64,000 nt of DNA from assembly GCA_049472315.1 (NCBI GenBank), contig JBLIRN010000003.1, forward strand, positions 7,523-71,522, given 5' to 3'. The stretch comes from a bacterium. Its GTDB lineage: Bacteria > SZUA-182 > DTGQ01 > JAFGSM01. The notes beneath the pieces were generated by a model. The model did no database searches and was not told the DNA's origin. It saw nothing but the letters and a program-made list of their open reading frames with translations. Positions 28,503 to 63,661 of this stretch are shown here, one piece after another; position 1 is the first letter of the stretch, and the number at the start of each line of letters is the position of its first letter. A program made the translations under genes and the position numbers.

Positions 28503-28684
28503 AACATCAGGATCTAGTTCGCCATATCGAGAAGCATGGGTGTGAGTTCTTAAGGGAAGGTGGCAATCATACAGTCTATGTAAATCGCAAGGAAAAGAAA
28601 GCAACCACCATTCCAAGACATCGTGATATTGATGATGATTTATCCAGAAAAATCTGTAAAGACCTGGGCATCCCAAAGCCATAA
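28499..28684 (+). CDS. hicA: HicA-family mRNA interferase toxin
   Basis: GCEFLREGGNHTVY...IPRH; overlaps hicB. Confidence 0.9.
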   Translation: MKHQDLVRHIEKHGCEFLREGGNHTVYVNRKEKKATTIPRHRDIDDDLSRKICKDLGIPKP

Positions 28685-31829: not shown

Positions 31830-31938
31830 CTATGAGTATATCCATATTCATTGTATTCCGCTCTTCGGACAGGAGGGTATCCAAGGTATACGTCCTTGCG
31901 GAGAACCTTCGTTACCATTGGGTCCGGCAAGGAATCAT

Positions 31939-32946
31939 TTAACATATTCTCGGGAGGATCTCCCCTGTCGGCCGGTCGAGCATGCGGGTTCCACCGATAG
32001 CGGTACGGATGACCACCTCACCGGCCGAATCCTCAACAACCCGGCCGATGACCGCCGCTTCCCTACCCAAGGGATGGGCCCGCATGGTCTCAAGTACCCT
32101 TTGCGCATCCTCGTCGGCGACAAAAACCAGCATCTTTCCCTCATTGGCGACATATAGTGGATCGATGCCGAGGATCTCGCATGCCCCCCTTACCGAGGGT
32201 TTTACAGGGATGGCCTCCTCCTCGAGCAGGAACGTCTTGCGCGACCTTTCAGCGATTTCATTCAGCACCGATGCGACCCCTCCCCTGGTGGGGTCCCTCA
32301 TGCAGTGAATGTGTGCCGATGCGGTCAATATCTCCTTTACCAAGGTATGCAGAAAGGCGACATCCGAGTGTATCTCGCCCGAGAAGCTGAGCCCTTCCCT
32401 CATGCTCATCACCGCCATGCCGTGATCGCCGATGGTCCCGCTCAGGATGATGGTGTCCCCCGGTTGTGCATGTGTACCGGAAATGGTGCCGGAATAGCTC
32501 ACCAGCCCGATCCCCGTGGAATTGATAAAGAGCTTGTCACCCTTCCCGTGGGGAACCACCTTGGTGTCACCGGTGATGACGCTTATGCCGGCCTCCTTTG
32601 CCGTACGCGCCATGGATGCGATGACCCGGTCCAGGTCACCCAGTGAAAACCCCTCCTCGATGATCACCGCCACGCTGAGGTAGAGGGGTGCTCCGCCGCA
32701 CATGGCCACGTCATTTAAGGTGCCGCATATGGCGAGTTTCCCTATGTCACCTCCGGGGAAGAAGAGGGGGTCCACCACGTAGGTGTCGGTGGACATGCAC
32801 AGGCGCATGCCGTTGATGGCAAATAGTCCCCCATCATCAAGAGAACCTAAAATAGGATTTGAAAAGAAAGGGAGAAAGTGCTCCTCGATCAATTGCTGTG
32901 AAAGCATGCCGCCGCTTCCGTGGGCGAGCAATATTGTGTCTGCCAT
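31939..32946 (-). CDS. hypE: Hydrogenase maturation carbamoyl dehydratase HypE
   Basis: LAHGSGG, TGDTKVV, RDPTRGG and C-terminal LPRIC. Confidence 0.97.
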   Translation of the reverse strand: MADTILLAHGSGGMLSQQLIEEHFLPFFSNPILGSLDDGGLFAINGMRLCMSTDTYVVDPLFFPGGDIGKLAICGTLNDVAMCGGAPLYLSVAVIIEEGFSLGDLDRVIASMARTAKEAGISVITGDTKVVPHGKGDKLFINSTGIGLVSYSGTISGTHAQPGDTIILSGTIGDHGMAVMSMREGLSFSGEIHSDVAFLHTLVKEILTASAHIHCMRDPTRGGVASVLNEIAERSRKTFLLEEEAIPVKPSVRGACEILGIDPLYVANEGKMLVFVADEDAQRVLETMRAHPLGREAAVIGRVVEDSAGEVVIRTAIGGTRMLDRPTGEILPRIC

Positions 32947-33283
32947 GGCCTCCATCCTCAAGCTATATGATTGAGACGGTATTCCCGACAAGCTTCTGCA
33001 TCCTGCTACGGTCTTATACCATACTTTCATTAAAAATTGTAACCGATCAATACATCTATTGTTCCTTCCGACCACCCGTAAGGCCCGTCTCGAAAATGTG
33101 CAACGGTTGCCCGACCCGTGGGGCCGGTTGAGATGTGACGCAACAAGCCATATGTGCATGGGAGGGATCTCCCGGAGGATGTTGCTCGCCAGCTTAACCG
33201 GGCGAGAATACGGTTCCTTTAAACGGTTCCCATAAAAGGATAGTGGCGATGCAATGCGGTGCGATAAAGACATAATGATGAGG

Positions 33284-36600: not shown

Positions 36601-36788
36601 CCGGGCAGACGGTGCACCAGGTGGGTATCCCCTGGCACTACGGATGGGTCACCACCGACTTCAACAACGGGCCCAATCTGACCTTCGGTGACAGCGCGAA
36701 TCTGCTGACTCCGACCGTCGGCGATTCCAACACCATGATCCCTGAGTCCAAGGCGTTCATGGTCAACGTGGTGCGAAAGGGGGTGTGA
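33690..36788 (+). CDS. fdnG: Formate dehydrogenase-N alpha subunit, selenocysteine-containing and Tat-exported
   Basis: KRRDFLK Tat motif and CPYCAVGC. The in-frame TGA at 34257-34259 lies in EHQARI-U-HSATV and joins the track ORFs 33645..34259 and 34308..36788. Confidence 0.96.
34260..34300 (+). promoter_or_regulatory. Bacterial SECIS element
   Basis: Hairpin GCGGCTCT-GGC-AGAGTCGT about 15 nt after the Sec UGA. Confidence 0.8.
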
Positions 36789-48049: not shown

Positions 48050-49360
48050 CTATCTCAGGTAGGAAAGCTCCTTGGGCAGGGGTTGATCCTTCCCCATGGT
48101 ATCCTCGCCGTAATTGACGCTCGCCAGGATCTTCAGGTCCTCAAGCGTCCTCTTATCACCGACGAAGGTCACCTTTTGTATGTTGTCCCTGGCGAGCTTC
48201 CCCCCTGCCCAGGTGATGCTCAGGATGCTGCTTGCATCGAACCGGTCCTCGCCCACATACATGGATACCTCCGAACCGTAGTGATTGACGATCTTCGCCA
48301 CCAGGGTGGCCGGCCTGAGGTGAAAACCGAGGTTTCTGGGGATGGGTAATTCTATGGAACCCTTGGAGGTGTAATCCTCCAGGAGTTCTTCGGCCAGGTT
48401 CTTCCCGTAGGCCACGAACTTTCTGCAATAGTACAAGGCCCAGGTGACGATATAGTCAAGGATGCATTCCGTCTGCATCTCCCTGTGTATCTCCTGATGG
48501 ATCTTCGGATGACGTTCGTAAAAATGCGTCCATGCCCGGGCCGCCTCCAGGAGCAACAGCGGAATGGAGATATAATTCCGCAGATGTGACAGCCGGGGAT
48601 CCTTGTCCTCACGGGATCGGTCATTGACATAGGTGTCATAGACGGATTCGAGGTTGTGCATCTCCAATTCAAAACTCCGGATGCATTCCTCGTTGATCAC
48701 ATCCGGGACGATCTGTTTTATTTTTTTAACCTTTTGTTTATCGGTGTGACAGGCGACCGGGTCAAAGTTTTGGGCAAGGTTCTGGTAGAGGGAGCAGATC
48801 TTCGCGATATCCTTCTCTTCGTTGCCGTAAAATGTCCGCACCTTGGTAATCGGAAGGGGAAGGTGTTCCAGAGAGATATTCTCCTCAACCGGATCGAAAT
48901 TTTTTGGGGAAGGCTGGATGCCGAGCTCCCGGGCCCGCAGCAGCAGTTTCTTGAAGATATAGGTAAGGGCCTTTTCGTGGAAATGCCGGACCTGCTCCAA
49001 CCGGCGGAAGAATTCCGTAAAATCCTTCAGCTCGATGCTGTCCGGGGGATATCGTTTTTGAATGAAGACGATCAGATACCCGGTCTGTCCAAATCCCCGG
49101 GCAGTGGCCACGAGTTCCCTGAAATAGAACCAGCGCTTATTTCGCCGCGCACCATGATCATCCAAAAAATCCTCCAACATCCGTGCATTGGCGATGAGCA
49201 TGCTCAGGAATGCCCTGCTGCGGATCATACGTTCGGGATTCACCCCTTCGACGACCATGCATTGGCTCAAGAGACCGTGGGCATATTCCTCGGCGAGGGT
49301 ACGAAACCTCTTATGGGGAAAGCCAGTTTTTGGCCGGGAGGTTGTGTCGGTCGATTTCAT
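48050..49360 (-). CDS. Large protein with a C-terminal HPr phosphocarrier domain
   Basis: GFHLRPATLVAKIV and DASSILSI motifs follow a ~335-aa N-terminal region. Confidence 0.85.
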   Translation of the reverse strand: MKSTDTTSRPKTGFPHKRFRTLAEEYAHGLLSQCMVVEGVNPERMIRSRAFLSMLIANARMLEDFLDDHGARRNKRWFYFRELVATARGFGQTGYLIVFIQKRYPPDSIELKDFTEFFRRLEQVRHFHEKALTYIFKKLLLRARELGIQPSPKNFDPVEENISLEHLPLPITKVRTFYGNEEKDIAKICSLYQNLAQNFDPVACHTDKQKVKKIKQIVPDVINEECIRSFELEMHNLESVYDTYVNDRSREDKDPRLSHLRNYISIPLLLLEAARAWTHFYERHPKIHQEIHREMQTECILDYIVTWALYYCRKFVAYGKNLAEELLEDYTSKGSIELPIPRNLGFHLRPATLVAKIVNHYGSEVSMYVGEDRFDASSILSITWAGGKLARDNIQKVTFVGDKRTLEDLKILASVNYGEDTMGKDQPLPKELSYLR

Positions 49361-49744: not shown

Positions 49745-50299
49745 CTACAGCCCCCATATCTGTGCGGCCGTCAGCAGGCTTGCCAATGGGATGCCGAAGT
49801 TCGCAGTGGGATAGGTCGCGAGGAATGAGAGATTTCCCTGCCCCACGAATGGACCGAACGTAGCGAGGTCCGTGGGGGGAAGAAGCCCGAAATCCACAGG
49901 GAGAGTCAGGGGTGCAGGCAGTCCAGTGAGGGAATCGAGAAGATTCGACGGGGGCCATGGATTGAGACCGAAATAGGGATCGAAGTAGGTTATGCCGCCT
50001 CCCAGTATCCCGGGGATATTGTACAGAAGCCACGGAAATTGACGCGCAGGATTCCATACGAGGCCCGGTTGAACAGGCAGGCTGGTGCCGGCGGTCAATT
50101 GGGAAATCAGGGGGGTCGCAAGACCGGTGACCGCATCGACCGGAGAAAGTGCAGGAGACCAGAGCGGCCAGAGAAGATTATACGGGGGAAGGGCGGACCA
50201 GTACTGGGCGCGTGCCGATGGCGCGCTGATGAGCACCACAGCCATTAGGATTACAAGTGTCATTACCCCCCATTTCAAAATGTTTATTTTTCCAAACAT
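49745..50299 (-). CDS. Secreted Pro/Leu/aromatic-rich protein
   Basis: GGAGG SD; signal peptide ending ARA-Q; the mature part is almost uncharged (YWSALPPYNLLWPLWSP...). Confidence 0.75.
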   Translation of the reverse strand: MFGKINILKWGVMTLVILMAVVLISAPSARAQYWSALPPYNLLWPLWSPALSPVDAVTGLATPLISQLTAGTSLPVQPGLVWNPARQFPWLLYNIPGILGGGITYFDPYFGLNPWPPSNLLDSLTGLPAPLTLPVDFGLLPPTDLATFGPFVGQGNLSFLATYPTANFGIPLASLLTAAQIWGL

Positions 50300-50642
50300 G
50301 GCAAACCTCCTAAATGCAAAAAAAAACGTGGACACTGCAAAACGGATCTCATGTAAGGCGCAATTCAGGTGTGTTTAAACGAACTGCTTATACCTCCTTG
50401 TGGAACGAACCGACAGGTGTTAAAAGGATGCCTTATACCGGATGGTTACTTCTCACCTCCCTTCGTCTCGATTCATCCAACAGGCTTCTGGAAAGGGAGC
50501 GCCTTCTGTGTGCATGACGGTTTGAAACACCACCCCTCACGCCGACAATCGTAGGGTATGTAAGGACTGCCGAGTCCATGCGGGGAATCGGTACAATTCC
50601 CTTCATAGTCATTGCTGGGGAAAAACCTTTTATTTACTATAA

Positions 50643-50710: not shown

Positions 50711-53410
50711 TCAGTCCACTCGCACCTTGAATTTGAGATCAGCGTATGGGGCGGGCGGGGTGCTGCTCCCCTGGAAGGTGCCCTTGGGCGAAACCCTGAT
50801 ATGGGAGACATTCCCGTCAAATCCGTGGGCATCCGGGGAGGGCACATAGGTGTATGTTGCACCCCCGTCGCCGGAGAAGTCGATATCATCCGTGGTGCTC
50901 TCCAGGCTGGTAAACGTATAGGTCAGGCCGCTTGGGGCCGTCCCGTCCAGAAAAAGGAGAGGCCCCGAGCCGGGGACGTCAATATCATTCACAAACAGGG
51001 ATGCATGTTCGGGGATGGGGTCTATGATCACCATCGTGTCGTCGTCGACAGGGCATATCCCCTGATTGGTGATGGTAATCGTATAGAGCATGGTTGCGCC
51101 GGGGATCGCCTTGGGATTGACATTTTCGTTGTACGGATCCGAAAGGGTGTGGACGCTTTTCATGACCAGGAGCTCCGGAGCGCCGACAAGGAACGTGCAG
51201 ACATATTCGTCGTTCACCAGGCCTTCTGTCCCTTCCATGGCCCTGATGATCGCCTGCCAGGTCCCGGTGGGCCATGAAGGCAGTTCGTATTGATATTCAT
51301 ACACTGCGTCCGATCCCCCTGAATCGAAAACCTCCGGTATGGGGGCGTCGGCAATGACGATGAAATTCTCCGGATCGATTATGGTGACGGTGGCGCCGCT
51401 TATATCGAAGCTTCCGAAGGGATCACCCACCAGTGCCCTGATGTGCACTGGGGAGCCGGGGAGGAAACATTGCGGAGCACCCCCTCCGGGATAGGGTGCA
51501 TCATATGCCCCTGCGGTATGGATATCGATGACCGTGGCGGCATTCAGGTCAACCCGTGAGGTGGCCCCTTCATAGGAGGGATACACATATACGGAATAGT
51601 AATAGGAAGAGGATTCGTTGGTCACGGTCAAGGTGATCTGCGAGCCCGGCAGGAGGGTGACTTCGGAGGGCAGGGATACATTGAAGACGATTTCGGTGGT
51701 CCCCCACATGCTTACGGTCCGGGTGACCGGGTCCCCGATGGGACCGGATGTGGCACCGGTTGAGGCAAGCGCCACGGTGAGGGTCCGGGAGCTTCCATAG
51801 TAATTACGGCGTATCCAGAGCCTCACCGGATGAAGCCCCGCGGCGAGGGTGAGCGGGGCTGCGGTCGCCGGCGTCATCTCCCATTGAACTGACCCCCCGT
51901 TTCCTGCAATGTACACCGATCCCGGAGACCCCTGGGGTGGGGTCCTGGAAAGCTCAAGCCCCGGGCTTCCATACAGATACAGCGGCTTATTGGCGGCGTC
52001 AAGGCCGAATACCGCGGTGGGGTCGCTGCTGGTGTTGTTGCCGGCAATATTATCGAAGGTGGGGCTGGAGACCGTTGCCGCATTCGTGACCTGCGGAACA
52101 GCCGAAGATTCAACGGAAACGGTCAGTGTTATGGGAGGCAATCCCTCACCTTCGGGCAGCGGGCCGGGATGCGACCAGGTGATGACCGGCAATGCGGATG
52201 TGTCCGCCGTCCATCCGGTGCCCGAGCTTGTAACATAATCAAGACCCGCGGGCAGGGCATCGCTCACCATAATGGTGCCCTCCGCATCATGGGGACCGTT
52301 GTTGCTGACGATAATGGTATACGTGCCGTTTTCCCCCACGGTGAAACTCCCCGCATGATTCTTGGTAATCGCAAGATCCGCCACCGGGGTGTTGGTCACC
52401 GAGACGATCTCCGCGCTCAGGAGCACCATGTCCTCACCCGAGCGGTATATGGTGGTGGCCGAGGTGTCGCCTGCATGCAGATAGGCGCTGATATCGTATG
52501 TGTCGATATCCACGCCGTAGCTGTTGTCCACACCCAGGCTGTTTATCGTGGAGTTGAACTGGTTGTGGATGGGATTGAGGCCGTCCGTGAGCAGATTCCC
52601 ATTGAGGATGAGGCTCTCCGTATAGCCGTACAAGGGATTTGAATTCTCCTCGTCCCCCTCCCAGCTTATGTGTGCATGCTTCCCCTCTATGGGCAGATCC
52701 GGGATGCGGAAGTTGCCCGGGGTCAGGATGATCTGGTTGCCCCAGTAGTACTGGAATCCGTCAAACAGGTTGATGACCCGGAAGTACTCCCCGGGATGCT
52801 CAAACACGACCACCAGTGACCAGCCCGCCACAACGCCCTGACTGTTGCAATGGGGGGAGCCGGTGTTGACACTCAGGTCTCCGAAGGAATAGGTCCCGTT
52901 CCCTTTTGCGGCAACGATCGCGGTGACATCGGCAAAACCGCAGAAATAGTCATAGTTTGTCCCTGAGAAGCGGAATCTCTCGGTGAAGGTGCGATCTGCG
53001 GTCAGGCTATACGATTCAAAGGTTATGTCATAATCGGGGGTTCGCTGCGTTGATCCCCTCCGGTCGGCGAATGATCCCGCCCAGTAAAGATATGCCGCCC
53101 TGATCACCGCGCCGGAAGGTATACCGAAAAGGGGGGCAGAGCCGTGGTCTGTCACTGCGCAGGCATTGACCGGATTGGGCTGTGTCCTCAATGTCCCCCC
53201 GGTGCAGGTGAAATCTATATTCCCGGCAAAGCTTCGGTACAATGTCACCGGTGTTCCCGCATTCACCGGGCCTGTGCCCGTCAGAAAGAGGAATAAAAAA
53301 AGAAAAAGGGGGATGCTCGTGCATGCGATAAGGCCCTTCCGTATACATATTCTCCTCCGAACGATCCGGATCATTACAGGGTCATCTCCCTGTGAAGGCA
53401 TTCCCCTCAT
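50711..53410 (-). CDS. DUF11-domain surface protein, putative tip adhesin
   Basis: Hydrophobic signal; N-terminal AYLYWAG/GWSLVVV domain; a complete internal DUF11-like domain (DLAITK...VTNAATV); a truncated C-terminal one. Start at 53410 (ATGA overlap) or 53374. Confidence 0.8.
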   Translation of the reverse strand: MRGMPSQGDDPVMIRIVRRRICIRKGLIACTSIPLFLFLFLFLTGTGPVNAGTPVTLYRSFAGNIDFTCTGGTLRTQPNPVNACAVTDHGSAPLFGIPSGAVIRAAYLYWAGSFADRRGSTQRTPDYDITFESYSLTADRTFTERFRFSGTNYDYFCGFADVTAIVAAKGNGTYSFGDLSVNTGSPHCNSQGVVAGWSLVVVFEHPGEYFRVINLFDGFQYYWGNQIILTPGNFRIPDLPIEGKHAHISWEGDEENSNPLYGYTESLILNGNLLTDGLNPIHNQFNSTINSLGVDNSYGVDIDTYDISAYLHAGDTSATTIYRSGEDMVLLSAEIVSVTNTPVADLAITKNHAGSFTVGENGTYTIIVSNNGPHDAEGTIMVSDALPAGLDYVTSSGTGWTADTSALPVITWSHPGPLPEGEGLPPITLTVSVESSAVPQVTNAATVSSPTFDNIAGNNTSSDPTAVFGLDAANKPLYLYGSPGLELSRTPPQGSPGSVYIAGNGGSVQWEMTPATAAPLTLAAGLHPVRLWIRRNYYGSSRTLTVALASTGATSGPIGDPVTRTVSMWGTTEIVFNVSLPSEVTLLPGSQITLTVTNESSSYYYSVYVYPSYEGATSRVDLNAATVIDIHTAGAYDAPYPGGGAPQCFLPGSPVHIRALVGDPFGSFDISGATVTIIDPENFIVIADAPIPEVFDSGGSDAVYEYQYELPSWPTGTWQAIIRAMEGTEGLVNDEYVCTFLVGAPELLVMKSVHTLSDPYNENVNPKAIPGATMLYTITITNQGICPVDDDTMVIIDPIPEHASLFVNDIDVPGSGPLLFLDGTAPSGLTYTFTSLESTTDDIDFSGDGGATYTYVPSPDAHGFDGNVSHIRVSPKGTFQGSSTPPAPYADLKFKVRVD

Positions 53411-56400
53411 GAGAAGAGCATCCTCACCAGCCTCGTGACATCCCGGCCGCTTGTCTGGTCTATCTTGAAACGGAAGCGCAGATAGGGACCCTGCGCCGTG
53501 TAATTCGCGTGTGAAAAGTCCCTGTCGGTGAAGCCCGAGATATTGTATCCGATGCTGACCCAGAGATTTTTCGCCGCACACATGCCGATGGAAGGGCCAT
53601 AGGAGTAATCAAGCTGCCGGGCATTCCATGAGTGCAGGATATTCACCCGCACCCCCGCATCCACCCGTTTGGTAATATCATAACGCCCCTCCATGCCGAT
53701 AAGGTCGGTATATCCCCTGTACTTGTCGTCATCCATGGTCTCCAGGACATACTTTGCCCCATACTGAAGGGAGAGCTGGGTCCTTCCGCGGGTGTAATTC
53801 GCATTCAGGTGATTCACGATCCTCCAACTGTCCAGGTCCGTATCGTCATCCCTGCGGCTGTCAACGAGGAAGTCCAGACGGTCCAGGATGATCCAGTCCG
53901 TTTGCGTCGGCCGATGGGCGAGGCAGAGCCGGATATCGCCCGTGCTGTCCTCTGCACCCGTGGCATGTTCGGTATGGAATACCTGTGCGCTGAAGGACAG
54001 GCCGAGGCCATGGCGGGGCTCGCCCAGGATGCCGGTGAACACCCCCCATTTGTGGCTGGTATCTGAAATGAGCCGTTCCACTCGGTTGGTCCATGACCAC
54101 TTCTGCCTTGTATAGGTGGCGCCCAGGGAGAGGGAGGTAAAATCATCGCCCCCGCCGGATGCCGGGGATACATTGAGATTCAGGGGGGTGTTCCCAGAAT
54201 CTTCGATAGTCCTCGTCTGGTCAAGGCTTCCGTCCACCGCCCATTGCTCGGTCACCTGCCAGGTCTGGCGCAACCCGAGATTGGCAAAGGTCCTGGGACC
54301 GTTCTCATTGATATCCTGCTGCATGGAGGTCTGCACCTCCCCCCCCGACCACGGGCTGGTCTTCAGACCGATACGGGACATCTGTGTATCCTCTGCCCTT
54401 CCATCGGTTATCTCATGTGTCGCAAAGAGGGTGGTATCCGCAGCAATATGATAATCCGCGCCCAGCATGGTGCGGGTGGGGAAATCCCCGCTGTCGTTAT
54501 CCCCACCCACCGATTGGGCATGCCCCAGCGATAGACTCAAACGCTCGCCGAACGCATCATACCCGGCGCCTGCCAAGAGCTGATTGGATCTGTTCACCCT
54601 GCCGTCTCCCAGTTCATCCGCTGCACCCCTCATGCCGGCCTTGATGGAATAGGCTCCGTTCCGGTATGTTCCCTCCCCCTCCAGAACGTCGCGTACCGCC
54701 CCTGTGGCGCGGAAGGTGTACCGGTATGCCTGTCCGGAGAGGGTGATCCGTTCATTCACTATACGGGATGCCTCCGCACCCGCCTTCTGTGTTCCTGTCT
54801 CGCTCCCGTTCTGCTGGCCGAGGCCGAAGCCGTCCTGTTCCTCGCGGATATATATGGATCCGTGCCCCTGATCCGACTCATGGGTGACCTCGGCGATGTA
54901 GGCATCCCCTTCCCTCTTTGTCCCGGCAAAGTCGGAGCTGGAGTGCGCCACCTCCGCCTTGATGCTGTTCCCGTGGGAAAGGTCATAGGTCATATCCACG
55001 CCATAGAGGTTCCCCTGGCCACCGATTCCGCCCTCGTGGATATGGGTCGCTCCCAGCTCAAGCCCGCGGTCCATGAGCCTTACCGCACCCCTGCCTCCGT
55101 AATTCGCCGATCGATCCCCATTGTCATGGGATTCGTAATCCACCACGATGAAAACGGGGTTGAACTGCTGATCCTTGCTCATGACAGGCTGCTTGAAATA
55201 GAGGGAGCCGGTCTCGTAATCGATGGCATAATCGATATATCTGGTGAGCTGCTCAGCGGAGATGATCCTTTCACTGTGAAAACGGTCGCGCGTCTGGATG
55301 GCCACCTTCTCGGAGCCTTGGACGATATTGCTCCTGGAGAGGTGATAGAGGCCCGAGGTGCCGTTTCCCCGTATCTCATCCTTGATGAATGCCTGGTTGG
55401 TCTCGCTCACGAATGCGCTGAAGGTGTAATATTCCGACTGCCCTTCGGTCTTGAACCCGGTGAAGGTCCGGCTATAGCGGGAAAGCTCGGTGACCGTAAT
55501 GCCGGTATCGTAATCCCCGAACAGGGCATAGAACTGCCCCCGCTCAATCTTGAGATACAGCTTCTCCGTGCTTGCCGCCTCGTGTGCCTGGCTGGTGGAA
55601 TCCCCATACAGGCCGTAGTAGGCATCAGGGTCGATGTCCTGGTGGAGGTTTTTATCATCCCTGTGCGTATCCCTCTCACTGTCATAGGCGATGGTCATCA
55701 GCCATTTCCCCTTGATCTGTCCCTTGGCGAAGAATGCCACCCCGCCATCGGTGATCATCCCCTCCTCCATGCCGGTCTCATCCGCCCCTTCCATATGATC
55801 GCGTACGGTGGTGTATCCGATGCCCCCCTGTGCAAGCCCCACCAGTATCCATTCCCTGGCAGCGGGCCTTAGCCATGTCCTGATCTCCCGCTCGCCCCCT
55901 GCAAGATTCAGCCGGATGACGACCTCACCGGTGGAGGAGGTGGGTTGAAGCCTCAGCAGCGCAATCCCATCCCTGCCCACCGTATAGCGCGGGCGATATT
56001 TGTTCATGCCGGACAACTGAAAATTCTGGTACGCCTCCGACTCCTGCAACGCGGCATAGGGGGGATCCACGGAAAACTCGCCGATGACCCCCTGCCGTGC
56101 CGGATAGCCATATTTATCGGTGAGGCGGATGGCGATCACCGGAGGGGTCTTCCCGTCGGCACAGGGGACAGAATCCTCCTCCCGGATCTCCACATCGACA
56201 GGGATATCGGAATAATGGATGGAACGGGTAATGCGACCCGTCTCCTCTCCTTGGCTGTTCCGAAGCACCGCATCGAAGAGGTTGTCACCCTCATGCAGGT
56301 CGATCCCCCGCCACACGCTGAGCGCTGCGGTGCCTAATTTGTTCTTGATCAGGGTGTCGAAATTCAGGGGGTCCACCTCCTGCCCGTTAAGGAGCAGGCT

Positions 56401-58920
56401 GATCCGCTCGGATGAATGATGTTTTATCATTACCTTTATGCTTGGGATGGAGGGGAGATACCCCTCTGCAGGAAAGAGCCATTCAAACCCGGACGTGGCG
56501 CTCTCCAGCCATGCATCGTCAAAGGAGGTCTTTCCCTCGGTTACGTCCTGCCCGGTCTGTGCTGCCCCATTTCCCTTCCCAGGAGCAGCACCCTGTGTCC
56601 TGGCCTTCATGAGTTCGCTATTCCCGGCCTGGAAATGTGCATCTATAACTGCAACGGGTGTGCGCCGGTTGCGCTGTGCCTGCGTATCAAAAAGCATCAC
56701 CCCCCGTACCGATCCCTGTTCCCCCTTTGCCTCGGATAGGCAGGCATTCACCCTCAGGGTCTTCGCCCATTCCGCCTGCGTATCCCCGAGGCGAACGGTG
56801 AGGGCGCCATCGGCAATCTCCGGGAGAATCGGCGCTGCATCGAGGAGGGCGCTCCCTTCCTCATAGGCGACACCATCCGGAAGCATCAGCACGATACGGA
56901 CATTCTGCAGCGGTACACCCGTGCCCCCCATATGAATCAGATACCCTCTTGTTTCTCCATCGTCAAGGGGCTCAGCGTCAATCGACATGAATGCCTCGCC
57001 CTGCGGCGGCCTTTTCGGACAGACCATGAAGTCCGCCCGCCACATTGCACCTGCCTGGAGATCAATGAACTGGGAGAAGGCATTCTCGGCGAACCGGTCG
57101 TGCGCACCCTCCTTGGGCCGATATCCCTCCGGGATGCTCTCGACATCCATTTGCACCACATGTGCGCCCGGGTCAACCCCTTCAAAGTGATACATCCCGT
57201 TTTTGTCGGTGATCACCGAAGAGCCGTCTTCAAGATATATCCGCACACCGGGAAGCACGTCTGCGGCCGGAGCCTTTCCCGTGTCCTCCCTGTCAGCGTT
57301 TTCTTTTTGCATAATTCCGCCGTCCGCACATCCCTCGATGCGCACCTGCCCGAGGATGATGCAGGTCGAGCGCATGAACTCATGGCGGACCTTCACCGTA
57401 ACTGCACCTATATTGGAATTTTCGCCCCCTATCCCCGTTGCCCATGCCAGGTTCTCCACATCCCCGATCCTGGCGCCTGCAGCCACCTCAGCCACATAGC
57501 TCACACTCACCTCGGAACCGGCCGGGAGGTCCCCGAGGGCAAAGGTCATGGTGCGTCCGTCCGGGGCAATGAGGGGGGCTTCCCCATGCTTTCCGTTTAT
57601 TCTGGCTGAATCCCTTTGATAGCGAAATCCCTTGGGGAGAAGGTCCTTGACCTCCACACCCGGAACGGTGGCGGCAGCGCTCGGATTCTCCACACTCACC
57701 GTGAACTGGATGAAGTCCCCGTGCGAAACCGTGTGCTTGGAAGCGGTTTTTCTGACATAAAGGGCGGATGCGGCAGGGTCGAGGGGGATATCGATATGCA
57801 CGACAGGACCCGGATTCACCACGAATATTCCGCCGAGCGATCCTGTGTCTATGGCAAAGGGCGCACCGGGAAGCGACTGGATGATACTCGCGGATACGGT
57901 GGAGGGAAAGAAATAATCCGCAGGCGGGGTGATCTCGAACCGGTAGTTGCCGGGGGCTATGAAGGGGAACCTGAATTTGCCCGGCTCAAAGACATACGCC
58001 CTGCCGCTGCTGTCCTTGACGCTTTCCCCCGAGATGACGGTGGAAGGGAATACGCTCACCCCGTCATCCCCGAAGACCGCGGCAGGGAGGCCGGTGTCCG
58101 CATCGATACAGGTGATGGTCGCCCCGTTCACCGGAAGCCCGGTCATGCTGTCAAAGATGATCCCGTATGGATCCACCAGCGCAGCGGATGCATCCGTATC
58201 CGTCCCATCCCATTGGTCGGAGTATGTCGCTGCGACCCTGACATCCTCGGCCACAGAGAGGAGGCCGTCATACATGACAGCGGAAATACTGCTGGTCTGG
58301 ACATAGCCGACAAAAATCCCCGTGTTTTCCCCGGATTCCGTGAGGCGAAGGACCTCCTTCTCACCCAGAGAATCAATGCTGATGGTCACCAGGACCGTAT
58401 CGCGGTGGTCAGGATCGACATCCTGATCCTGATCCCTGAGCACCAGGAAGAGGGGCTCCCCCTTGTGGTATATGCCTCTTTGGGTAAGGGGAACCGGTCC
58501 GCTCATGTCAAGGGGTGTGCCGAATATGGTTGGGGCTCCCAGAGGGCGGAACTCCCCGCTGCCGCCGGAATCATATTCCGTTGCTGCGATGCTGAAGTAT
58601 TCCCCGCCGGACGCCTGGGGCGCATACTGCCGGAAGCTCAGCTCCGAGGGGGTGCGGAACTCGATCTCCATGGCCACCGTATTGGACTGGGCCATGAGCG
58701 CAGCCTCATCGCCGATCCGGTAGGATGCACTAGCCGTATTGAGGACCTTCCTGGGAAAACGGGTCGAATCAGCCCGCAGATTGGATGCAAGAAGGAGAAG
58801 GCAAAGGCAAAGGAGTATGAGGAGCATCGGAGGATTCCGAAGCCACCACACCGCTATCCGCACCCGAAAAGAACATGCCAGGGACATGCCGGAAAGCAGG
58901 GGTGAAAAATCTCTCTTCAT
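53407..58920 (-). CDS. Giant outer-membrane protein with DUF11/SdrD-like domains and a C-terminal beta-barrel
   Basis: Signal peptide; DUF11-like YVRKTAS...DLLP...VENLA; GVRIYLEDG..TDKNGMYHF; about 800 aa of amphipathic beta strands ending YLRFRFKID. Confidence 0.82.
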   Translation of the reverse strand: MKRDFSPLLSGMSLACSFRVRIAVWWLRNPPMLLILLCLCLLLLASNLRADSTRFPRKVLNTASASYRIGDEAALMAQSNTVAMEIEFRTPSELSFRQYAPQASGGEYFSIAATEYDSGGSGEFRPLGAPTIFGTPLDMSGPVPLTQRGIYHKGEPLFLVLRDQDQDVDPDHRDTVLVTISIDSLGEKEVLRLTESGENTGIFVGYVQTSSISAVMYDGLLSVAEDVRVAATYSDQWDGTDTDASAALVDPYGIIFDSMTGLPVNGATITCIDADTGLPAAVFGDDGVSVFPSTVISGESVKDSSGRAYVFEPGKFRFPFIAPGNYRFEITPPADYFFPSTVSASIIQSLPGAPFAIDTGSLGGIFVVNPGPVVHIDIPLDPAASALYVRKTASKHTVSHGDFIQFTVSVENPSAAATVPGVEVKDLLPKGFRYQRDSARINGKHGEAPLIAPDGRTMTFALGDLPAGSEVSVSYVAEVAAGARIGDVENLAWATGIGGENSNIGAVTVKVRHEFMRSTCIILGQVRIEGCADGGIMQKENADREDTGKAPAADVLPGVRIYLEDGSSVITDKNGMYHFEGVDPGAHVVQMDVESIPEGYRPKEGAHDRFAENAFSQFIDLQAGAMWRADFMVCPKRPPQGEAFMSIDAEPLDDGETRGYLIHMGGTGVPLQNVRIVLMLPDGVAYEEGSALLDAAPILPEIADGALTVRLGDTQAEWAKTLRVNACLSEAKGEQGSVRGVMLFDTQAQRNRRTPVAVIDAHFQAGNSELMKARTQGAAPGKGNGAAQTGQDVTEGKTSFDDAWLESATSGFEWLFPAEGYLPSIPSIKVMIKHHSSERISLLLNGQEVDPLNFDTLIKNKLGTAALSVWRGIDLHEGDNLFDAVLRNSQGEETGRITRSIHYSDIPVDVEIREEDSVPCADGKTPPVIAIRLTDKYGYPARQGVIGEFSVDPPYAALQESEAYQNFQLSGMNKYRPRYTVGRDGIALLRLQPTSSTGEVVIRLNLAGGEREIRTWLRPAAREWILVGLAQGGIGYTTVRDHMEGADETGMEEGMITDGGVAFFAKGQIKGKWLMTIAYDSERDTHRDDKNLHQDIDPDAYYGLYGDSTSQAHEAASTEKLYLKIERGQFYALFGDYDTGITVTELSRYSRTFTGFKTEGQSEYYTFSAFVSETNQAFIKDEIRGNGTSGLYHLSRSNIVQGSEKVAIQTRDRFHSERIISAEQLTRYIDYAIDYETGSLYFKQPVMSKDQQFNPVFIVVDYESHDNGDRSANYGGRGAVRLMDRGLELGATHIHEGGIGGQGNLYGVDMTYDLSHGNSIKAEVAHSSSDFAGTKREGDAYIAEVTHESDQGHGSIYIREEQDGFGLGQQNGSETGTQKAGAEASRIVNERITLSGQAYRYTFRATGAVRDVLEGEGTYRNGAYSIKAGMRGAADELGDGRVNRSNQLLAGAGYDAFGERLSLSLGHAQSVGGDNDSGDFPTRTMLGADYHIAADTTLFATHEITDGRAEDTQMSRIGLKTSPWSGGEVQTSMQQDINENGPRTFANLGLRQTWQVTEQWAVDGSLDQTRTIEDSGNTPLNLNVSPASGGGDDFTSLSLGATYTRQKWSWTNRVERLISDTSHKWGVFTGILGEPRHGLGLSFSAQVFHTEHATGAEDSTGDIRLCLAHRPTQTDWIILDRLDFLVDSRRDDDTDLDSWRIVNHLNANYTRGRTQLSLQYGAKYVLETMDDDKYRGYTDLIGMEGRYDITKRVDAGVRVNILHSWNARQLDYSYGPSIGMCAAKNLWVSIGYNISGFTDRDFSHANYTAQGPYLRFRFKIDQTSGRDVTRLVRMLFS

Positions 58921-59184
58921 GATACTCCAGGGAAGCTCCCATCCTGTTTAATTCTTATTTAATCGACTGTCTCACATATTCACTAATCCATAGGGCTCCT
59001 GTCCCTTTGCTTGTATGCACCGCCACTGTCTGTGCAGACATACATACATGGATATATGCCGCAGGTCTGAGTATATGCAATCAAAACCCGCATACCTTCA
59101 TCCCTTCCGCGAACAGCAATCGACATTGTCATAGGGGATTACTGCAGGCATGTTTTTCAGCGCAGGACCCAATGTGGGGGAATT

Positions 59185-60330
59185 CTACTGCACGATGACC
59201 CTGAACTTGACCGTGGCGGTTTCCCCGGCAGCCAGGTCTATCCCGGTAACAGTAACCGTATTTGCAGCGGTAACGCCAAAATCAGCCTCATCAGTATCAT
59301 CAGCGTTTGTCAGCGCTGTCTCAGTTTCCGAATAAAGGTTCGGTGCTTTCACCATTATGCCCTTGTTCGGTAATGTACCATAGCAATTGGGATCAAAGGC
59401 GATTGTCCCGGTCGTGATTTCAGAATTCAGGCTGTCCGATACCGTTATGCCGGTTGCCGTCGCTGCCCCTGCTGCATTCGAAACGGTTATGAGATATTCG
59501 ACAACAGCGCCTGGAATGCGCTTAGGATTCGATGTGCCATTAATCGGATCAGATTTCACTGTCGACTCTTTGGTAACGGTTAGCACCGATGAAACACACT
59601 TGTAATCATCCAGAGATGAGTATTGCCCGTCAGGCGATATTCCATCTATCGACCCCTGCCCATCTGCAAAAACAACTTGCACAACATCTGGGTCATCAAG
59701 GTCACCGGAAGTGTTCAATGTTACACTACCCTTGCTGCCGGGAGATCCGCCGTCATGTGTGGTTGCTGTGAGGTGATAGGATGCATATTGGCCGTTCGTG
59801 GCGCTCAATGGCGCATCCGCCACGATAAAAACGTAAATATTCACATCCGCAGCCAGTTCATCGATGAAGGTGGCGTTATCGGTTCCCGCTTCATAGATGC
59901 CGTTGCCGTTTACATCAACACGGATTTTTACCGAGGTCATGTCGAAAGCATCTTTTGTTTCATCTCCAAACGCGGTTTCACCCCCTGTATCAACCGTATT
60001 TGCATCCAGATGGTAATCCTGGACCGTATTGCCGGTATTTGTCACCAGGAAGGTCAATACGTATCCGGAGCCTCCAGGGGTTATCGACACAGGACTTAGA
60101 TCGTCGGTCGTAACGGTCAGGTCTACCTTGTTGTCTACTACGAAGGTCGCCGCTGAGCTCGTTATGGGCGTCTGAGGTATGGTATTGACCGAATAATCGA
60201 TGCTAGCGCTGTTAGAGATGATGGTTCCAGAAGCGGTCCCGGCCGCATAGACCACCTGCGTCACGCCAAGAAGAAGGGCGCCTGTCAGCACGAAAATAAT
60301 TGCCATGCACAGCAAATCCTTGGTTTTCAC
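59185..60330 (-). CDS. DUF11-type pilin-like subunit (candidate major subunit)
   Basis: GTG start with GGAGG SD; signal peptide; AGTASGTIISNSASIDY N-terminus; C-terminal VTKES...IPGAVVEY...VKFRVIVQ. Confidence 0.8.
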   Translation of the reverse strand: MKTKDLLCMAIIFVLTGALLLGVTQVVYAAGTASGTIISNSASIDYSVNTIPQTPITSSAATFVVDNKVDLTVTTDDLSPVSITPGGSGYVLTFLVTNTGNTVQDYHLDANTVDTGGETAFGDETKDAFDMTSVKIRVDVNGNGIYEAGTDNATFIDELAADVNIYVFIVADAPLSATNGQYASYHLTATTHDGGSPGSKGSVTLNTSGDLDDPDVVQVVFADGQGSIDGISPDGQYSSLDDYKCVSSVLTVTKESTVKSDPINGTSNPKRIPGAVVEYLITVSNAAGAATATGITVSDSLNSEITTGTIAFDPNCYGTLPNKGIMVKAPNLYSETETALTNADDTDEADFGVTAANTVTVTGIDLAAGETATVKFRVIVQ

Positions 60331-60433
60331 TGCAATCCTCCATTGTTTAGATACATATCAAGAATTTGTGTTGCCATGTATATTGTATGCATCATGGCAT
60401 CTCAAAGCGTCTCAAGGTATCATATCCCTTTTT

Positions 60434-60934
60434 CTATTCCAGTTGGGCGAGGTAGGACACCTGGCCTGTTTGACCCGGCTCCACGGCCTGCGTGAGCGCC
60501 CAGCGTATATGTGTATACTCGGAGGCCACCGCCACCCGCTCCTTATCCTCCTCATCCTTCACCTTGAGATTCTCGGGGGAATCGAAGACCTTGCCGCCGT
60601 CAATGGAAAAGGTGATGGACGCGCCATCTCCCAGGGCAGTTCCCCCCTTGTAGATCATGTGCTCCGGGATGGGGTTGTTGATGACGATATCGTTCACGGT
60701 CTCGTTTCCGACAACGGTGTAAAAAATCGTATAGATCACCGTGTCGCCGGGCACCACCTTGGATGCCTCCACCCGCTGTATCTCCTTTTCTCCCTTTTCA
60801 TTGACAATCTCGATCTCCCTTTCGGCAATGCACTTCAGCTCGATATGCCCTTTCTCCTGCGCGATTGCCGGGTAATTCAGGGCGAATGCAAGGAAAATTA
60901 CAGGCAGCACCATGCGGGTACATATCCTTTTCAT
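60434..60934 (-). CDS. Single-domain DUF11-like exported protein (candidate chaperone/cap)
   Basis: Signal peptide (AIA-Q); PGDTVIYTI, NNPIP and HIRW...PGQTGQVSY. Confidence 0.78.
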   Translation of the reverse strand: MKRICTRMVLPVIFLAFALNYPAIAQEKGHIELKCIAEREIEIVNEKGEKEIQRVEASKVVPGDTVIYTIFYTVVGNETVNDIVINNPIPEHMIYKGGTALGDGASITFSIDGGKVFDSPENLKVKDEEDKERVAVASEYTHIRWALTQAVEPGQTGQVSYLAQLE

Positions 60935-60962
60935 TGCTCCTCTCCCTCCATTGTATTGTTCA

Positions 60963-61955
60963 TTAATCAATAGTGACCTTAAAAGAGATGGTTTGTGTCT
61001 CAGATGCGCTGGTCAGCTCCCCCAGCTTAACCGTAACCGTGTTCGGTTTGGTTACCCCGACATCACCTGCATCTTCATCCTCTTCGTCAGAAAGTGGCGC
61101 TGTGTTCAATTTCAGTGTGCCCGCCACATATTCTGTCGCCGCTGGTATGGGATCTTCGATAATGACATTTTTGGCTGTTCCTGAACCGGTCACGGTCACG
61201 ACAATGGAATAGGTGATGGTTGCCCCCGGAACAGGCCTATCCGTTTCGAATGGGTCGAGTATCTGTGCAGATTTCACAATGCTCACGATAACACCGGACA
61301 CAAGATATGTACCGGTGGCGTTATCAGTCCCTCCGGAGAAACCGATGACCGCATCCGTCCCTCCCTGGCCATCACCCTCGAAGATTTCCCCCGCACCTGT
61401 CCCGGTCTTGGATGTGACGGTCAGCCTGCTGTCTCCTGTTTCGCCGTCATTGGGATCCAACGGGATATTGTTGAGGACGAAGACGGTGACATTGGCATCC
61501 GCCGCAATGGAAGGATCATTGGTCCCCACCTGGTACTGGGTTTCACCTGCATCGTAGACGCCGTTCTCATTATCATCAAAGAAGATATTTACCAGGGTCG
61601 GGTCGAAGTCATCGCCCGTGATGGTGCTGAGGGCGGAGAGGGTGAAGCCTTCCGGGCCGTTACCCGTATTGGTTACGAGAAAGGTGAGCACCCGGGATGT
61701 GGCGCCCGGGGTCACGACCACTGCAGACGCGTCCTCCCATGTAACATCGACATTGATAAGCTCATCAACGGTAAGGGTGTATGTATTGCTATCCTTGGTC
61801 AGCCCGGTTACCGTGCCGACGGTATAGGTGGCCGTTGCCTTGTTGCTTATCGGGGTCCCGGCCAGTGTACCGACAGCCAGGGCGGGCGGCGCTGCTGCAG
61901 AGAAAAGGAATAACGCGGTACAGGTGAGCAGTATGCAGTATGTCGTGAATCTCAT
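60963..61955 (-). CDS. DUF11-type pilin-like subunit
   Basis: Signal peptide (ALA-V); GTLAGTPISNKATATY N-terminus; C-terminal IVKSA...PGATITY...EDPIP...ISFKVTID. Confidence 0.8.
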   Translation of the reverse strand: MRFTTYCILLTCTALFLFSAAAPPALAVGTLAGTPISNKATATYTVGTVTGLTKDSNTYTLTVDELINVDVTWEDASAVVVTPGATSRVLTFLVTNTGNGPEGFTLSALSTITGDDFDPTLVNIFFDDNENGVYDAGETQYQVGTNDPSIAADANVTVFVLNNIPLDPNDGETGDSRLTVTSKTGTGAGEIFEGDGQGGTDAVIGFSGGTDNATGTYLVSGVIVSIVKSAQILDPFETDRPVPGATITYSIVVTVTGSGTAKNVIIEDPIPAATEYVAGTLKLNTAPLSDEEDEDAGDVGVTKPNTVTVKLGELTSASETQTISFKVTID

Positions 61956-62031
61956 GTCTCCCCCTTTAAAGAGATGATTCAGAAAGATCCGTAAAAATAA
62001 CCGCAGCCTCTTTAAAAAAGTACCAAAGAGA

Positions 62032-62047
62032 AGCAAAAAATATACCA
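62032..62047 (-). promoter_or_regulatory. sigma54 (-24/-12) promoter of the DUF11 operon
   Basis: Minus strand TGGTATATTTTTTGCT is GG-N10-GC, about 77 nt upstream of ATG 61955. Confidence 0.7.
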
Positions 62048-62055
62048 TACAGATT

Positions 62056-62068
62056 ATTCAATAAGTTA
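62056..62068. promoter_or_regulatory. Putative IHF site
   Basis: ATTCAATAAGTTA, one mismatch to WATCAA-N4-TTR, in an AT-rich tract just upstream of the sigma54 site. Confidence 0.45.
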
Positions 62069-62422: not shown

Positions 62423-63661
62423 ATGAACGAACAGGAAAAGATAGAGCTCATTACCCAGATAAGCCTTGATATCAACAAGGTGAAGGACCTCGACATCCTC
62501 CTCGAGCGAATACTGACCAATGTCAGAAAATTCTTTAATGCGGATGCAGGCTCTATCTATCTCAAACAGGGTGACAAATTGAAATTCAGCTACACCCAGA
62601 ATGACACGCTCGCCACGCGTATGGGACCCAACAAAAAACTCCTCTATACCACCTTTTCCATACCGATCGACAATGATTCCATTGCGGGGTATGTCGCCAG
62701 GAATCAGCAGATCCTGAACATCCCTGATGTATATGTCCTGAGTGGTTCGGAGGCGTATACCTTTGATGAGAATTTCGATCGGGTATCGGATTACAGGACC
62801 ACCTCCGTCCTTGCCGTGCCCATGACCGACCAGCGTGGCGAGGTACTCGGTGTCTTGCAGATCATCAATGCAAAGGATGAGAAAGGGAGGGTAATCCCCT
62901 TTGCGCGTTCCAGCGAGGACATGATAGGGCACTTTGCCACGAGTGTTGCCCTTGCCGTGGAGCGTGCACAGGTTACACGGGACCTCATTCTTCGGATGAC
63001 AAGCATGGCCGAGTTGCGCGATCCCGATGAAACCGGCGCACATGTCAACAGGGTCGCTTCGTATGCGGTGGTCCTCTTTGAGGGCTGGGGATTGAGAAAC
63101 GGCCTTTCTCATGCCGAGATCGACGGCAGGAAGGATATGTTGAGGATGGCTGCCATGTTGCATGACGTCGGTAAGGTGGCGGTGAGTGATGTCATCCTCA
63201 AGAAACCCGGGCGCCTGACCTCAAAAGAATACGACATAATCAAGAGCCATACCTATTTGGGCGCAAGGCTTTTCACCGGCATGCGATCGGAACTCGATGA
63301 GGTGGCTGCCGAGGTGGCCCTCAACCACCATGAGCGCTGGGATGGCACGGGATATCCGGGCCATATCGACCTTCTTACCGGTAAACCCCTCCCCGGATTC
63401 TCAGGGCCGGGGAACAGGCCATTGCCCAAAAAGGAAGATGATATACCCCTCTTCGGAAGGATCGTTGCGGTTGCCGATGTCTACGACGCCCTCTCTTCAC
63501 GCAGGTCATACAAGGAGCCCTGGGGTGAGGATCGGGTGATCGAGGAGATGTTCGACAATGCAGGAAGGCAGTTCGATCCGGAATTGATCAAGGTCTTTTT
63601 TTCCTACATCGATGTTCTGAGGTTTTTTGCTAATTACTATCCTGATGTGTCAAGGGTCTGA
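62423..63661 (+). CDS. GAF + HD-GYP cyclic di-nucleotide phosphodiesterase
   Basis: GAF (SIAGYVA, YRTTSVLAVPM, GVLQIIN); HDVGK, HHERWDGTGYP and VADVYDAL..RRSYK. Confidence 0.92.
   Translation: MNEQEKIELITQISLDINKVKDLDILLERILTNVRKFFNADAGSIYLKQGDKLKFSYTQNDTLATRMGPNKKLLYTTFSIPIDNDSIAGYVARNQQILNIPDVYVLSGSEAYTFDENFDRVSDYRTTSVLAVPMTDQRGEVLGVLQIINAKDEKGRVIPFARSSEDMIGHFATSVALAVERAQVTRDLILRMTSMAELRDPDETGAHVNRVASYAVVLFEGWGLRNGLSHAEIDGRKDMLRMAAMLHDVGKVAVSDVILKKPGRLTSKEYDIIKSHTYLGARLFTGMRSELDEVAAEVALNHHERWDGTGYPGHIDLLTGKPLPGFSGPGNRPLPKKEDDIPLFGRIVAVADVYDALSSRRSYKEPWGEDRVIEEMFDNAGRQFDPELIKVFFSYIDVLRFFANYYPDVSRV

Follow-up and report, generated by a model that had tools for sequence, protein, structure and literature searches.

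Split DUF11 domains in a five-gene operon of a diderm bacterium, and a candidate surface fiber built from them

Chaperone-usher pili (Fim/Pap) are built from an acceptor-only tip, a shaft of subunits with an N-terminal donor and an incomplete immunoglobulin (Ig)-like fold, and a donor-only terminator; their subunits are Sec exported, and an outer membrane (OM) beta-barrel stands at the base. We found the same predicted polarity in a five-gene operon of a bacterium of the GTDB lineage SZUA-182 (assembly GCA_049472315.1). The operon lies in a 64,000-nucleotide stretch of contig JBLIRN010000003.1 (positions 7,523 to 71,522 of the forward strand), here called the window, and all coordinates below are window positions. 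It encodes a putative tip adhesin, two putative pilins (A and B), a small secreted protein, and a giant OM protein. An earlier note, made from the same DNA, had proposed that these proteins form a donor-strand-complemented polymer with its own barrel. Our comparative analysis supports that proposal through conserved donor/acceptor bookkeeping, a natural fusion, and covariation, and we think it fairly likely that the operon specifies a surface fiber of a diderm bacterium in which a CLIPPER (DUF11) domain is split between subunits.

The operon departs from chaperone-usher pili in several respects. Its donor would be a two-strand hairpin rather than one strand, its subunits have two domains, its acceptor would be a CnaA-like CLIPPER half-domain with an isopeptide triad, and its terminator is seemingly fused to the barrel protein. 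The sole candidate chaperone would bind donors and leave grooves unfilled, in mirror image to PapD, which occupies the groove of the acceptor. Usher (PF00577), PapD_N (PF00345), and Sortase gave no match in the 97.6%-complete genome, with Usher and PapD_N controls matching in E. coli. The earlier note's statement that sortase and PapC/PapD genes are missing from the window thus holds genome-wide; type IV and curli genes, which it also listed as missing, were not searched for. The genome has four Omp85-family matches, which mark the organism as diderm.

SpyTag/SpyCatcher is an engineered split CnaB2 domain: a short peptide carries one reactive residue, the rest of the domain carries the other two, and the parts ligate spontaneously. 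It is the nearest chemical analog, but it is man-made, of CnaB type, and joins Lys to Asp with a Glu catalyst; the operon would hold a natural CnaA-type split that serves polymerization. Sortase-assembled pili of Gram-positive bacteria are likewise covalent, with a tip adhesin and Ig-like pilins that carry CnaA/CnaB isopeptide domains. There, however, sortase links an LPXTG threonine to a pilin lysine, whereas the operon proteins have no LPXTG, the genome has no sortase, and the organism is diderm. Four of the operon's C-termini end in the last beta-strand, with neither an LPXTG motif nor a hydrophobic tail.

Donor-strand complementation with a sortase-free intermolecular isopeptide lock has been described in two other fibers. 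In the Sulfolobus threads (Saci_0406), Asn57 is joined to the N-terminal Asp24 of subunit n+2 (PMC9715654), and BsaA of Clostridium perfringens, a TasA-family protein, follows an "exchange and lock" scheme with an N35-K74-E56 triad (PMC11580942). Going by the available parts of these papers, both systems differ from the operon in their folds and bond residues, use single-strand donors, and have no outer membrane and no barrel component. None of the five operon proteins matched the TasA/BsaA (camelysin-like) or Saci_0406 families in Pfam and NCBIfam, which sets them apart by sequence, not by fold. A pilin profile found no sequence relative in the PDB (best E 0.93). In the Pam pili of candidate phyla radiation (CPR) bacteria, each two-domain pilin pairs an intact N-terminal sandwich with a C-terminal Ig-like domain that is cut short and relies on a neighbor's donor strand for its completion. 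These pili have membrane-anchored chaperones and no outer membrane, the accessible text mentions no isopeptide or DUF, and they are set apart here by description only (PMC13278184). None of these three fibers includes a barrel partner or a CLIPPER fold.

DUF11 itself has lately been given the name CLIPPER; a crystal structure (9IFR) shows a CnaA-like domain whose intramolecular Lys-Asn isopeptide bond is catalyzed by Asp (K715/D748/N806; PMC12617251). The isopeptide signature is missing from some DUF11 domains. The operon shares this domain family (PF01345), and complete copies with a cis triad occur in the adhesin and the giant OM protein. The triad spacing matches: the K-to-D and K-to-N distances are 34 and 93 in the complete DUF11 of the adhesin and 33 and 91 in 9IFR. 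In the part of PMC12617251 that is available, CLIPPER figures only as the intramolecular staple of single-chain fibrillar-adhesin stalks, with no mention of a split or of strand complementation, whereas the terminal copies here are split. A PDB sequence search with the complete DUF11 of the adhesin gave no usable match. A full-text literature search, with subscription papers and supplements outside its scope, found no published split DUF11 pilus. A 2026 review of bacterial surfaces, in its available part, describes intermolecular isopeptide bonds for sortase pili only and mentions neither DUF11 nor CLIPPER. The "DUF11" of the tafi paper proved to be DUF1102.

DUF11 domains split between the operon proteins

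Four operon proteins end in a truncated DUF11 copy. We built a complete-domain profile from the internal DUF11 of the giant OM protein and 34 homologs, and its columns 15-100 of 126 align with residues 238-351 of the 352-residue mature pilin B (profile comparison, probability 94.8%, E 5e-8). The pilin B chain stops where the complete domain has 26 more residues, which make up its N-x-A hairpin. The small-protein profile (56-177 of 178) has the same end boundary, at residue 479 of the OM protein (E 6.8e-7), and the boundary of the adhesin C-domain falls at residue 478 (E 1e-3). All four copies end at column 100 of 126 and have no Asn strand, and none has a complete fold with the triad on one chain. 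The earlier note had seen these proteins end right before the hairpin; their C-termini are as it quoted them, and the profile comparisons confirm the truncation.

Three proteins, pilin A, pilin B, and the giant OM protein, begin with a hairpin, as the note had also reported; it lies 11 residues past the signal-peptide cleavage site. These hairpins are mutually homologous, and the pilin hairpin profile matches residues 51-87 of the OM protein (probability 96%, E 4.3e-9). The note had further taken the N-terminal hairpin to be the one that the truncated domains miss. Its position bears this out, since against the complete-domain profile it covers just those columns that are missing (103-136 of 143), Asn on Asn; the similarity itself (E 0.16) is not significant alone.

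The same bookkeeping is kept across related loci. A hidden Markov model (HMM) of the hairpin matched the N-termini of 79 pilin-B-class, 55 pilin-A-class, and 37 OM-protein open reading frames (ORFs), plus five truncated OM-protein starts, and matched none of the adhesins and none of the small proteins among the related-locus ORFs. The acceptor domain stood at the extreme C-terminus in 35 of 36 adhesin-class ORFs. The distribution described from the single operon, with the OM protein as donor only, the pilins as both, and the adhesin as acceptor only, is therefore a property of the wider family. DUF11 domains are split across the operon proteins.

The split also divides the isopeptide triad. 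Among homologs from 80 related loci, the acceptors carry Lys in 128/128 and Asp in 127/128 (pilin A, 51/51 for each; pilin B, 52/52 for each; adhesin C-domain, 25/25 and 24/25), and the donor hairpins carry Asn in 111/127 (51/52 in pilin B, 39/51 in pilin A, and 21/24 in the giant OM protein). The complete internal domain of the OM proteins holds the triad in cis (K in 31/35, D in 35/35, and N in 30/35). In the small proteins, Lys occurs in 30/71, and the Asp position is Asn in 50/71 and Asp in 10/71. Because Lys and Asp are kept in the acceptors and occur jointly in only 3 of 70 small proteins of the same fold, the triad is not needed for folding. By these counts it is retained exactly where a donor Asn could meet Lys and Asp. 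The divided triad had gone unnoticed in the earlier note and is new here. Since the split passes through Lys, Asp, and Asn, the fiber is probably covalent, with a lock between subunits.

We analyzed covariation by mean-field direct coupling analysis (DCA) of 379 pilins (effective number of sequences, Meff, 282). The pairs 37-64, 41-57, 45-55, and 47-52 describe the N-terminal piece as an antiparallel hairpin. This hairpin ladders antiparallel with the first strand of the C-domain (48-248, 46-250, and 43-252, ranked 74, 117, and 254 of 60,378), and the pairs 47-294 and 45-255 rank 36 and 63. When 307 antiparallel registers were scanned for partners of the Asn strand (40-48), the Lys strand (248-256) scored best (z 4.6) and the Asp strand (293-301) second (z 4.2); the best partner of the Lys strand anywhere in the pilin was likewise 40-48. 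Covariation thus shows a predicted contact between the hairpin and the C-domain.

A natural fusion bears on whether that contact is made within one chain or between two. P0121 (696 aa), the top match of the pilin profile, is a single chain of two pilin units that no signal peptide separates, and its ~70%-identical orthologs from other sources, P0261 and P0262, keep the same junction. In all three, the Asn of hairpin 2 is the 11th residue past the end of unit 1. Free pilins place their Asn 11th after the cleavage site in 289/325, and in 324/340 the chain runs exactly 3 residues beyond the last conserved Val; the Asn of the giant OM protein is the 11th mature residue too. Because the junction is spaced as in free pilins, the fusion corresponds to the C-terminus of subunit i joined to the mature N-terminus of subunit i+1. 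The hairpin is also a portable module, as the next domain in the giant OM protein differs from that of the pilins. The adhesin has no hairpin of its own for its groove, and the giant OM protein has a hairpin and no open acceptor. These donor-only and acceptor-only partners, the tandem fusion, the portable hairpin, and the scattered couplings between the N- and C-domains described below make hairpin complementation in trans very probable.

From these comparisons we infer a scheme of trans pairing, covalent bonding, homopolymerization, export, and a part for the small protein. The acceptor, a half-domain at the C-terminus of the adhesin and of either pilin, would offer the Lys strand and the catalytic Asp and miss its last beta-hairpin. 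The donor would be a hairpin with the Asn, formed by the opening ~37 residues of a mature pilin A, pilin B, or giant OM protein. Insertion of the next subunit's hairpin would complete the fold and set the Asn beside Lys and Asp, and a spontaneous Lys-Asn isopeptide bond would lock the joint. The chain would run from the adhesin (tip, acceptor only) through one or both pilins head to tail (donor and acceptor) to the OM protein (base, donor only). The fiber would leave tip first through the barrel, and the N-terminal hairpin of the OM protein would cap the last pilin and tie the fiber to the barrel; in OmpA-bearing species it would also be tied to the cell wall. The small protein may hold hairpins reversibly in the periplasm. 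Pilin B, the paralog class encoded next to the OM protein, is the likely shaft subunit, and on balance we favor a true homopolymer.

A homopolymer weighed against other arrangements

We surveyed the gene neighborhood, as the earlier note had suggested, by scanning one genome per species. Of 284 stretches that matched, 224 were confirmed and 80 loci were kept. Going by record titles, they come from at least nine phyla, among Gamma-, Alpha-, and Betaproteobacteria, Myxococcota and other "delta" groups, Campylobacterota, Nitrospirota, Spirochaetales, Eisenbacteria, Zixibacteria, and Krumholzibacteria. The core order is conserved as pilin, small protein, pilin, giant OM protein. Among loci with room, the small gene lies upstream of pilin B in 73/77, the giant OM protein downstream of pilin B in 64/64, and pilin A is found in 55/74. 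All four core genes occur in 27 of the 40 full-size loci, which have 9 kb or more to either side. When the ORFs of the loci were clustered all against all, no further conserved gene family emerged, and the leftover clusters were antisense shadow ORFs.

The main rival to a homopolymeric shaft is a stitched adhesin of fixed length, in which the OM protein, pilin B, pilin A, and the adhesin are joined once each. The operon has three donors and three triad-bearing acceptors, equal numbers that suit such a chain. Pilins A and B also appear, from their phylogeny, to be old paralogs tied to gene position: one clade (support 0.993, FastTree) takes in 52/56 pilins whose gene lies downstream of the small gene and 0/47 of those whose gene lies upstream, the class of pilin A. 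In a test of DCA pairing energy, the pilin B hairpin showed a weak trend toward the same-locus pilin A acceptor (p 0.085), and there was no signal for the pilin A hairpin with pilin B (p 0.89) or the OM-protein hairpin with pilin A (p 0.61). However, in 11 of the 40 full-size loci pilin A is missing while the small gene, pilin B, and the OM protein are all there, and an adhesin-class gene lies within 10 kb in only 20 of the 40. The covariation between hairpin and C-domain is unchanged with pilin-B-class sequences alone, which fits pilin B binding pilin B, and the two units in the fusion, which share 54% identity, are of one class. We consider a chain of fixed length unlikely.

Less likely still is a circularly permuted domain, in which the hairpin folds in cis into its own C-half, possibly stapled by an isopeptide bond, and the products would be monomers at the surface or in the periplasm. 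As such a fold would have it, the hairpin and C-domain residues that covary belong to one chain, and native same-chain pairs beat shuffled pairs at percentile 0.865, a figure confounded by lineage effects and near-duplicates in the training set. Yet hairpin-less adhesins and acceptor-less OM proteins share the locus, hairpin 2 of the fusion follows directly on C-domain 1 with free-pilin spacing, and both chain ends are strictly fixed in length, as counted above. Folding back would need a large interface between the N- and C-domains, and the couplings between these are scattered, with no coherent pattern and none ranked above 83. The earlier note had itself raised circular permutation as the case against its proposal; partners, fusion, and incoherent N/C-domain covariation make it improbable, on comparative sequence evidence.

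A donor-hairpin fiber without the covalent bond, as in chaperone-usher pili, whose conserved Lys, Asp, and Asn would serve nothing but fold or packing, is equally improbable: the DUF11 domains that lack the isopeptide signature (PMC12617251), the 12 of 51 pilin A donors with Ser, Thr, Ala, or Gly for Asn, and the BsaA N35A oligomers that, in the accessible text of PMC11580942, are SDS (sodium dodecyl sulfate)-stable without the bond would all suit it, but the near-invariance of Lys and Asp in acceptors against their joint rarity in same-fold small proteins, and the covariation of the Asn strand with exactly the Lys and Asp strands, argue for the bond.

Several observations weigh against the fiber that we favor. 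Covariation cannot distinguish cis from trans, and the likeness of the N-terminal hairpin to the last hairpin of complete DUF11 falls short of significance by itself. The fusion represents a single lineage, as a search for longer pilins added just one adhesin-type match; its genomic context was not recovered, the metagenome scan having given only ordinary two-gene loci at 36-46% identity. DCA pairing energy gave no co-adaptation between the OM-protein hairpin and the same-locus pilin B acceptor (n 20, p 0.40). Since 12 of 51 pilin A donors are without Asn, not every joint can be covalent. The barrel assignment rests on weak family matches and amphipathic periodicity, and the OM protein of the window has no OmpA domain (see below). 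Expression evidence consists of a few identical contigs in RNA libraries: four short metatranscriptome contigs from three libraries equal the operon at 53477-53712, 59134-59345, 60701-60968, and 61326-61551. The uncovered parts are uninformative in such libraries and DNA carry-over is possible, and we take the contigs as a weak hint of transcription.

Outer membrane protein, small protein, and tip adhesins

In an alignment of 47 sequences, the last 837 residues are the best conserved part of the giant OM protein. This C-part has no sequence relative in the PDB and no Pfam family above the cutoff, and its weak matches are to OM beta-barrel families only (OMP_b-brl in 6/47, YfaZ in 3, DUF2490 in 3, MtrB_PioB in 2, and Porin_4 in 1, at 5.9e-7). 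None of the 47 C-parts matched Usher, and the OM protein and its 47 homologs showed no match to any autotransporter, intimin, or TpsB family. Atlas look-alikes of the C-part are ~850-aa clusters labeled "outer membrane protein"; the Atlas has no structure for either the OM protein or the small protein. A crude periodicity count finds ~38 amphipathic segments in the C-part, and its 837 aa are far above the size of type V barrels, which have 12 to 16 strands and carry their own passenger. We predict that the C-part forms a large beta-barrel.

Upstream of the C-part lies a stalk of Ig-like domains, and the protein also has CarboxypepD_reg-like domains. An OmpA-family peptidoglycan-binding domain stands directly before the C-part in 3 of 10 homologs searched with Pfam and in 24 of 62 full-length homologs searched with an HMM built here (L002, L005, L006, L054, L062, and 19 other loci), at about residues 750-1000, between the Ig-like stalk and the barrel part. 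An OmpA domain in that position suggests that, in many homologs, the chain just before the barrel is periplasmic, a feature that the earlier note had not noticed and that is new here. Together with the donor-only N-terminus, it suggests an usher-like arrangement, and we tentatively propose that the giant OM protein is an usher-like pore fused to the fiber terminator.

The small protein was counted above as a fourth truncated copy. In the window it has the Lys, with Asn in place of Asp, and, judged by these residues, it is an acceptor-like domain that lost the triad. Having no hairpin, it cannot fill grooves; having no triad, it cannot be locked. With low confidence, we suggest that it could be a reversible periplasmic chaperone that holds hairpins against premature irreversible ligation. 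A non-covalent cap is a candidate alternative.

Ten adhesin-class proteins have a common C-terminal acceptor and differing heads. Their heads include Ice_binding, CBM96, a legume lectin, a right-handed beta-helix (three proteins), DUF2341, four DUF11 repeats, and SdrD_B stalks, and one protein has no known domain; the window's adhesin carries DUF3344. In the available part of a fibrillar-adhesin survey, DUF3344 is one of the N-terminal domain clusters whose function is given as ambiguous (PMC9210967). By their domain content, the tip proteins are modular.

Operon layout, surroundings, and distribution

According to the ORF list and a check of the translations, the operon consists of five co-oriented minus-strand genes at 50711-61955, all for secreted proteins (Table 1). 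All five proteins start with signal peptides of Sec type, as judged by eye. DUF11 (PF01345) or TIGR01451 matched four of the five proteins and no family matched pilin B. The PF01345 scores were 73.3 bits for the adhesin, 43.2 for the OM protein, 26.6 for pilin A, and 16.7 for the small protein, against a cutoff of 24.6; TIGR01451 was above its cutoff in four of the five. An ATGA at 53407-53410 makes the adhesin start overlap the stop codon of the giant OM protein, which suggests that the two are translationally coupled. Promoter and terminator scans were not clearly above shuffled sequences (11 versus 9.7 +/- 2.9 and 17 versus 10.6 +/- 3.6), and the 264 nucleotides that separate pilin B from the OM protein gave an RNA fold no better than those of shuffled copies (z +1.37).

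Table 1. Genes of the operon and their predicted parts, in window coordinates; names follow the proposed roles
Feature	Position	Strand	Details
Pilin A	60963-61955	minus	ATG at 61955, 31 codons inside the ORF (ORF start 62048); Sec signal peptide, N-domain; C-terminus ISFKVTID
Pilin A, putative donor hairpin	61764-61874	minus	Asn codon 61842-61844
Pilin A, putative acceptor half-domain	60966-61295	minus	Lys 61272-61274; Asp 61152-61154
Small protein	60434-60934	minus	166 aa, secreted; single acceptor-type truncated DUF11 domain
Pilin B	59185-60330	minus	381 aa; signal peptide residues 1-29, N-domain; C-terminus VKFRVIVQ
Pilin B, putative donor hairpin	60133-60243	minus	Asn40 codon 60211-60213
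Pilin B, putative acceptor half-domain	59188-59592	minus	Lys254 59569-59571; Asp299 59434-59436
Giant OM protein	53407-58920	minus	1837-aa ORF; likely start M32 (58827); signal peptide, Ig-like stalk
Giant OM protein, putative donor-only hairpin	58660-58770	minus	Asn61 58738-58740
Giant OM protein, complete DUF11	57376-57783	minus	cis triad
Giant OM protein, C-terminal beta-barrel-like part	53410-55920	minus	conserved; 837 aa
Tip adhesin	50711-53410	minus	start is M58 of the ORF; signal peptide, further domains; C-terminus LKFKVRVD
Tip adhesin, DUF3344	52397-53239	minus	
Tip adhesin, complete DUF11	52025-52378	minus	
Tip adhesin, putative acceptor-only C-terminal half-domain	50714-51199	minus	Lys808 51158-51160; Asp854 51020-51022

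Two neighboring genes flank the operon. Just upstream and divergent, 62423-63661 (+) encodes a protein with GAF and HD-GYP-type (HD_5/HD) domains, which could be a cyclic-di-GMP-linked regulator from its domains; ORF clustering of the 80 loci showed that it is not kept beside the system elsewhere. Just downstream of the adhesin, 49745-50335 (-) encodes a 196-aa secreted protein rich in Trp, Pro, and Leu, which has no family match and lies outside the conserved gene set. The gene at 48050-49360 (-) encodes a 436-aa protein of unusual architecture, whose sole match is a C-terminal HPr-like (PTS-HPr) domain.

Farther off, window positions 28001-32000 have a low GC content of 0.43-0.47, against ~0.56 elsewhere. 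The ORF at 29502-31829 (+) in this low-GC stretch encodes a 775-aa secreted protein with a Tyr/Pro/Asn-rich tail, without a Pfam or PADLOC match. The window also has genes for HypF (25698-28025), an AIR-synthase-related (HypE/SelD-like) protein (31939-33273), and a molybdopterin oxidoreductase (34308-36788), which, going by these annotations, form a context of hydrogenase maturation and anaerobic respiration.

The genome (3.05 Mb in 101 contigs) has a single copy of the cluster. Among 20 genomes of its own small phylum, the system turned up in 3, that of the window included, all from the one genus, and its distribution is thus patchy. Near-identical DNA occurs in estuary, marine-sediment, mangrove, and soil metagenomes, with the whole stretch or part of it in 20 runs from eight studies. 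A full gene set also lies on a 1.16-Mb conjugative megaplasmid, pTHN of Novosphingobium sp. THN1 (L097; NZ_CP028348.1, 8258-29267), where pilin B and the giant OM protein are each spread over several frames, reflecting decay or sequencing errors, which makes this strain a poor model. Parasphingorhabdus sp. DH2-15 (L059) and Marinobacterium profundum PAMC 27536 (L060) are cultured bacteria whose loci are intact.

The pilin family is large. It numbers 567 proteins at E <= 1e-3 among 8000 scored candidates, and 1438 clusters (50% identity) at E <= 1e-30, and where sources name its members at all, the names are no more than "hypothetical," "TIGR01451 family," or "DUF11 domain-containing." It is a serious possibility, just short of an even one, that the system is an unrecognized pilus class present in at least nine diderm phyla, without a homolog of usher, PapD, or sortase, and marked by a CnaA-type split like that of SpyTag/SpyCatcher as the driver of polymerization, a giant protein that is pore, terminator, and in many species peptidoglycan anchor at once, a triad-less decoy as periplasmic chaperone against polymerization, and plug-in tips (lectin, carbohydrate-binding, ice-binding, or beta-helix) on one covalent connector.

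If this is true, outer-membrane bacteria would have a new pilus class beside the chaperone-usher, type IV, type V, and curli systems, and the first such class with enzyme-free covalent links between subunits. Testable questions on assembly order and length control arise from the barrel protein, which is donor only, and from the small protein, which has no triad. Split isopeptide domains would already be a natural protein glue, and their evolved tag/catcher pairs may be orthogonal and of use in protein engineering. A large family labeled "hypothetical" or "TIGR01451 repeat protein" would gain a function, and the fiber would account for the display of lectin, carbohydrate-binding, or ice-binding heads by environmental bacteria on stalks that are both long and very stable.

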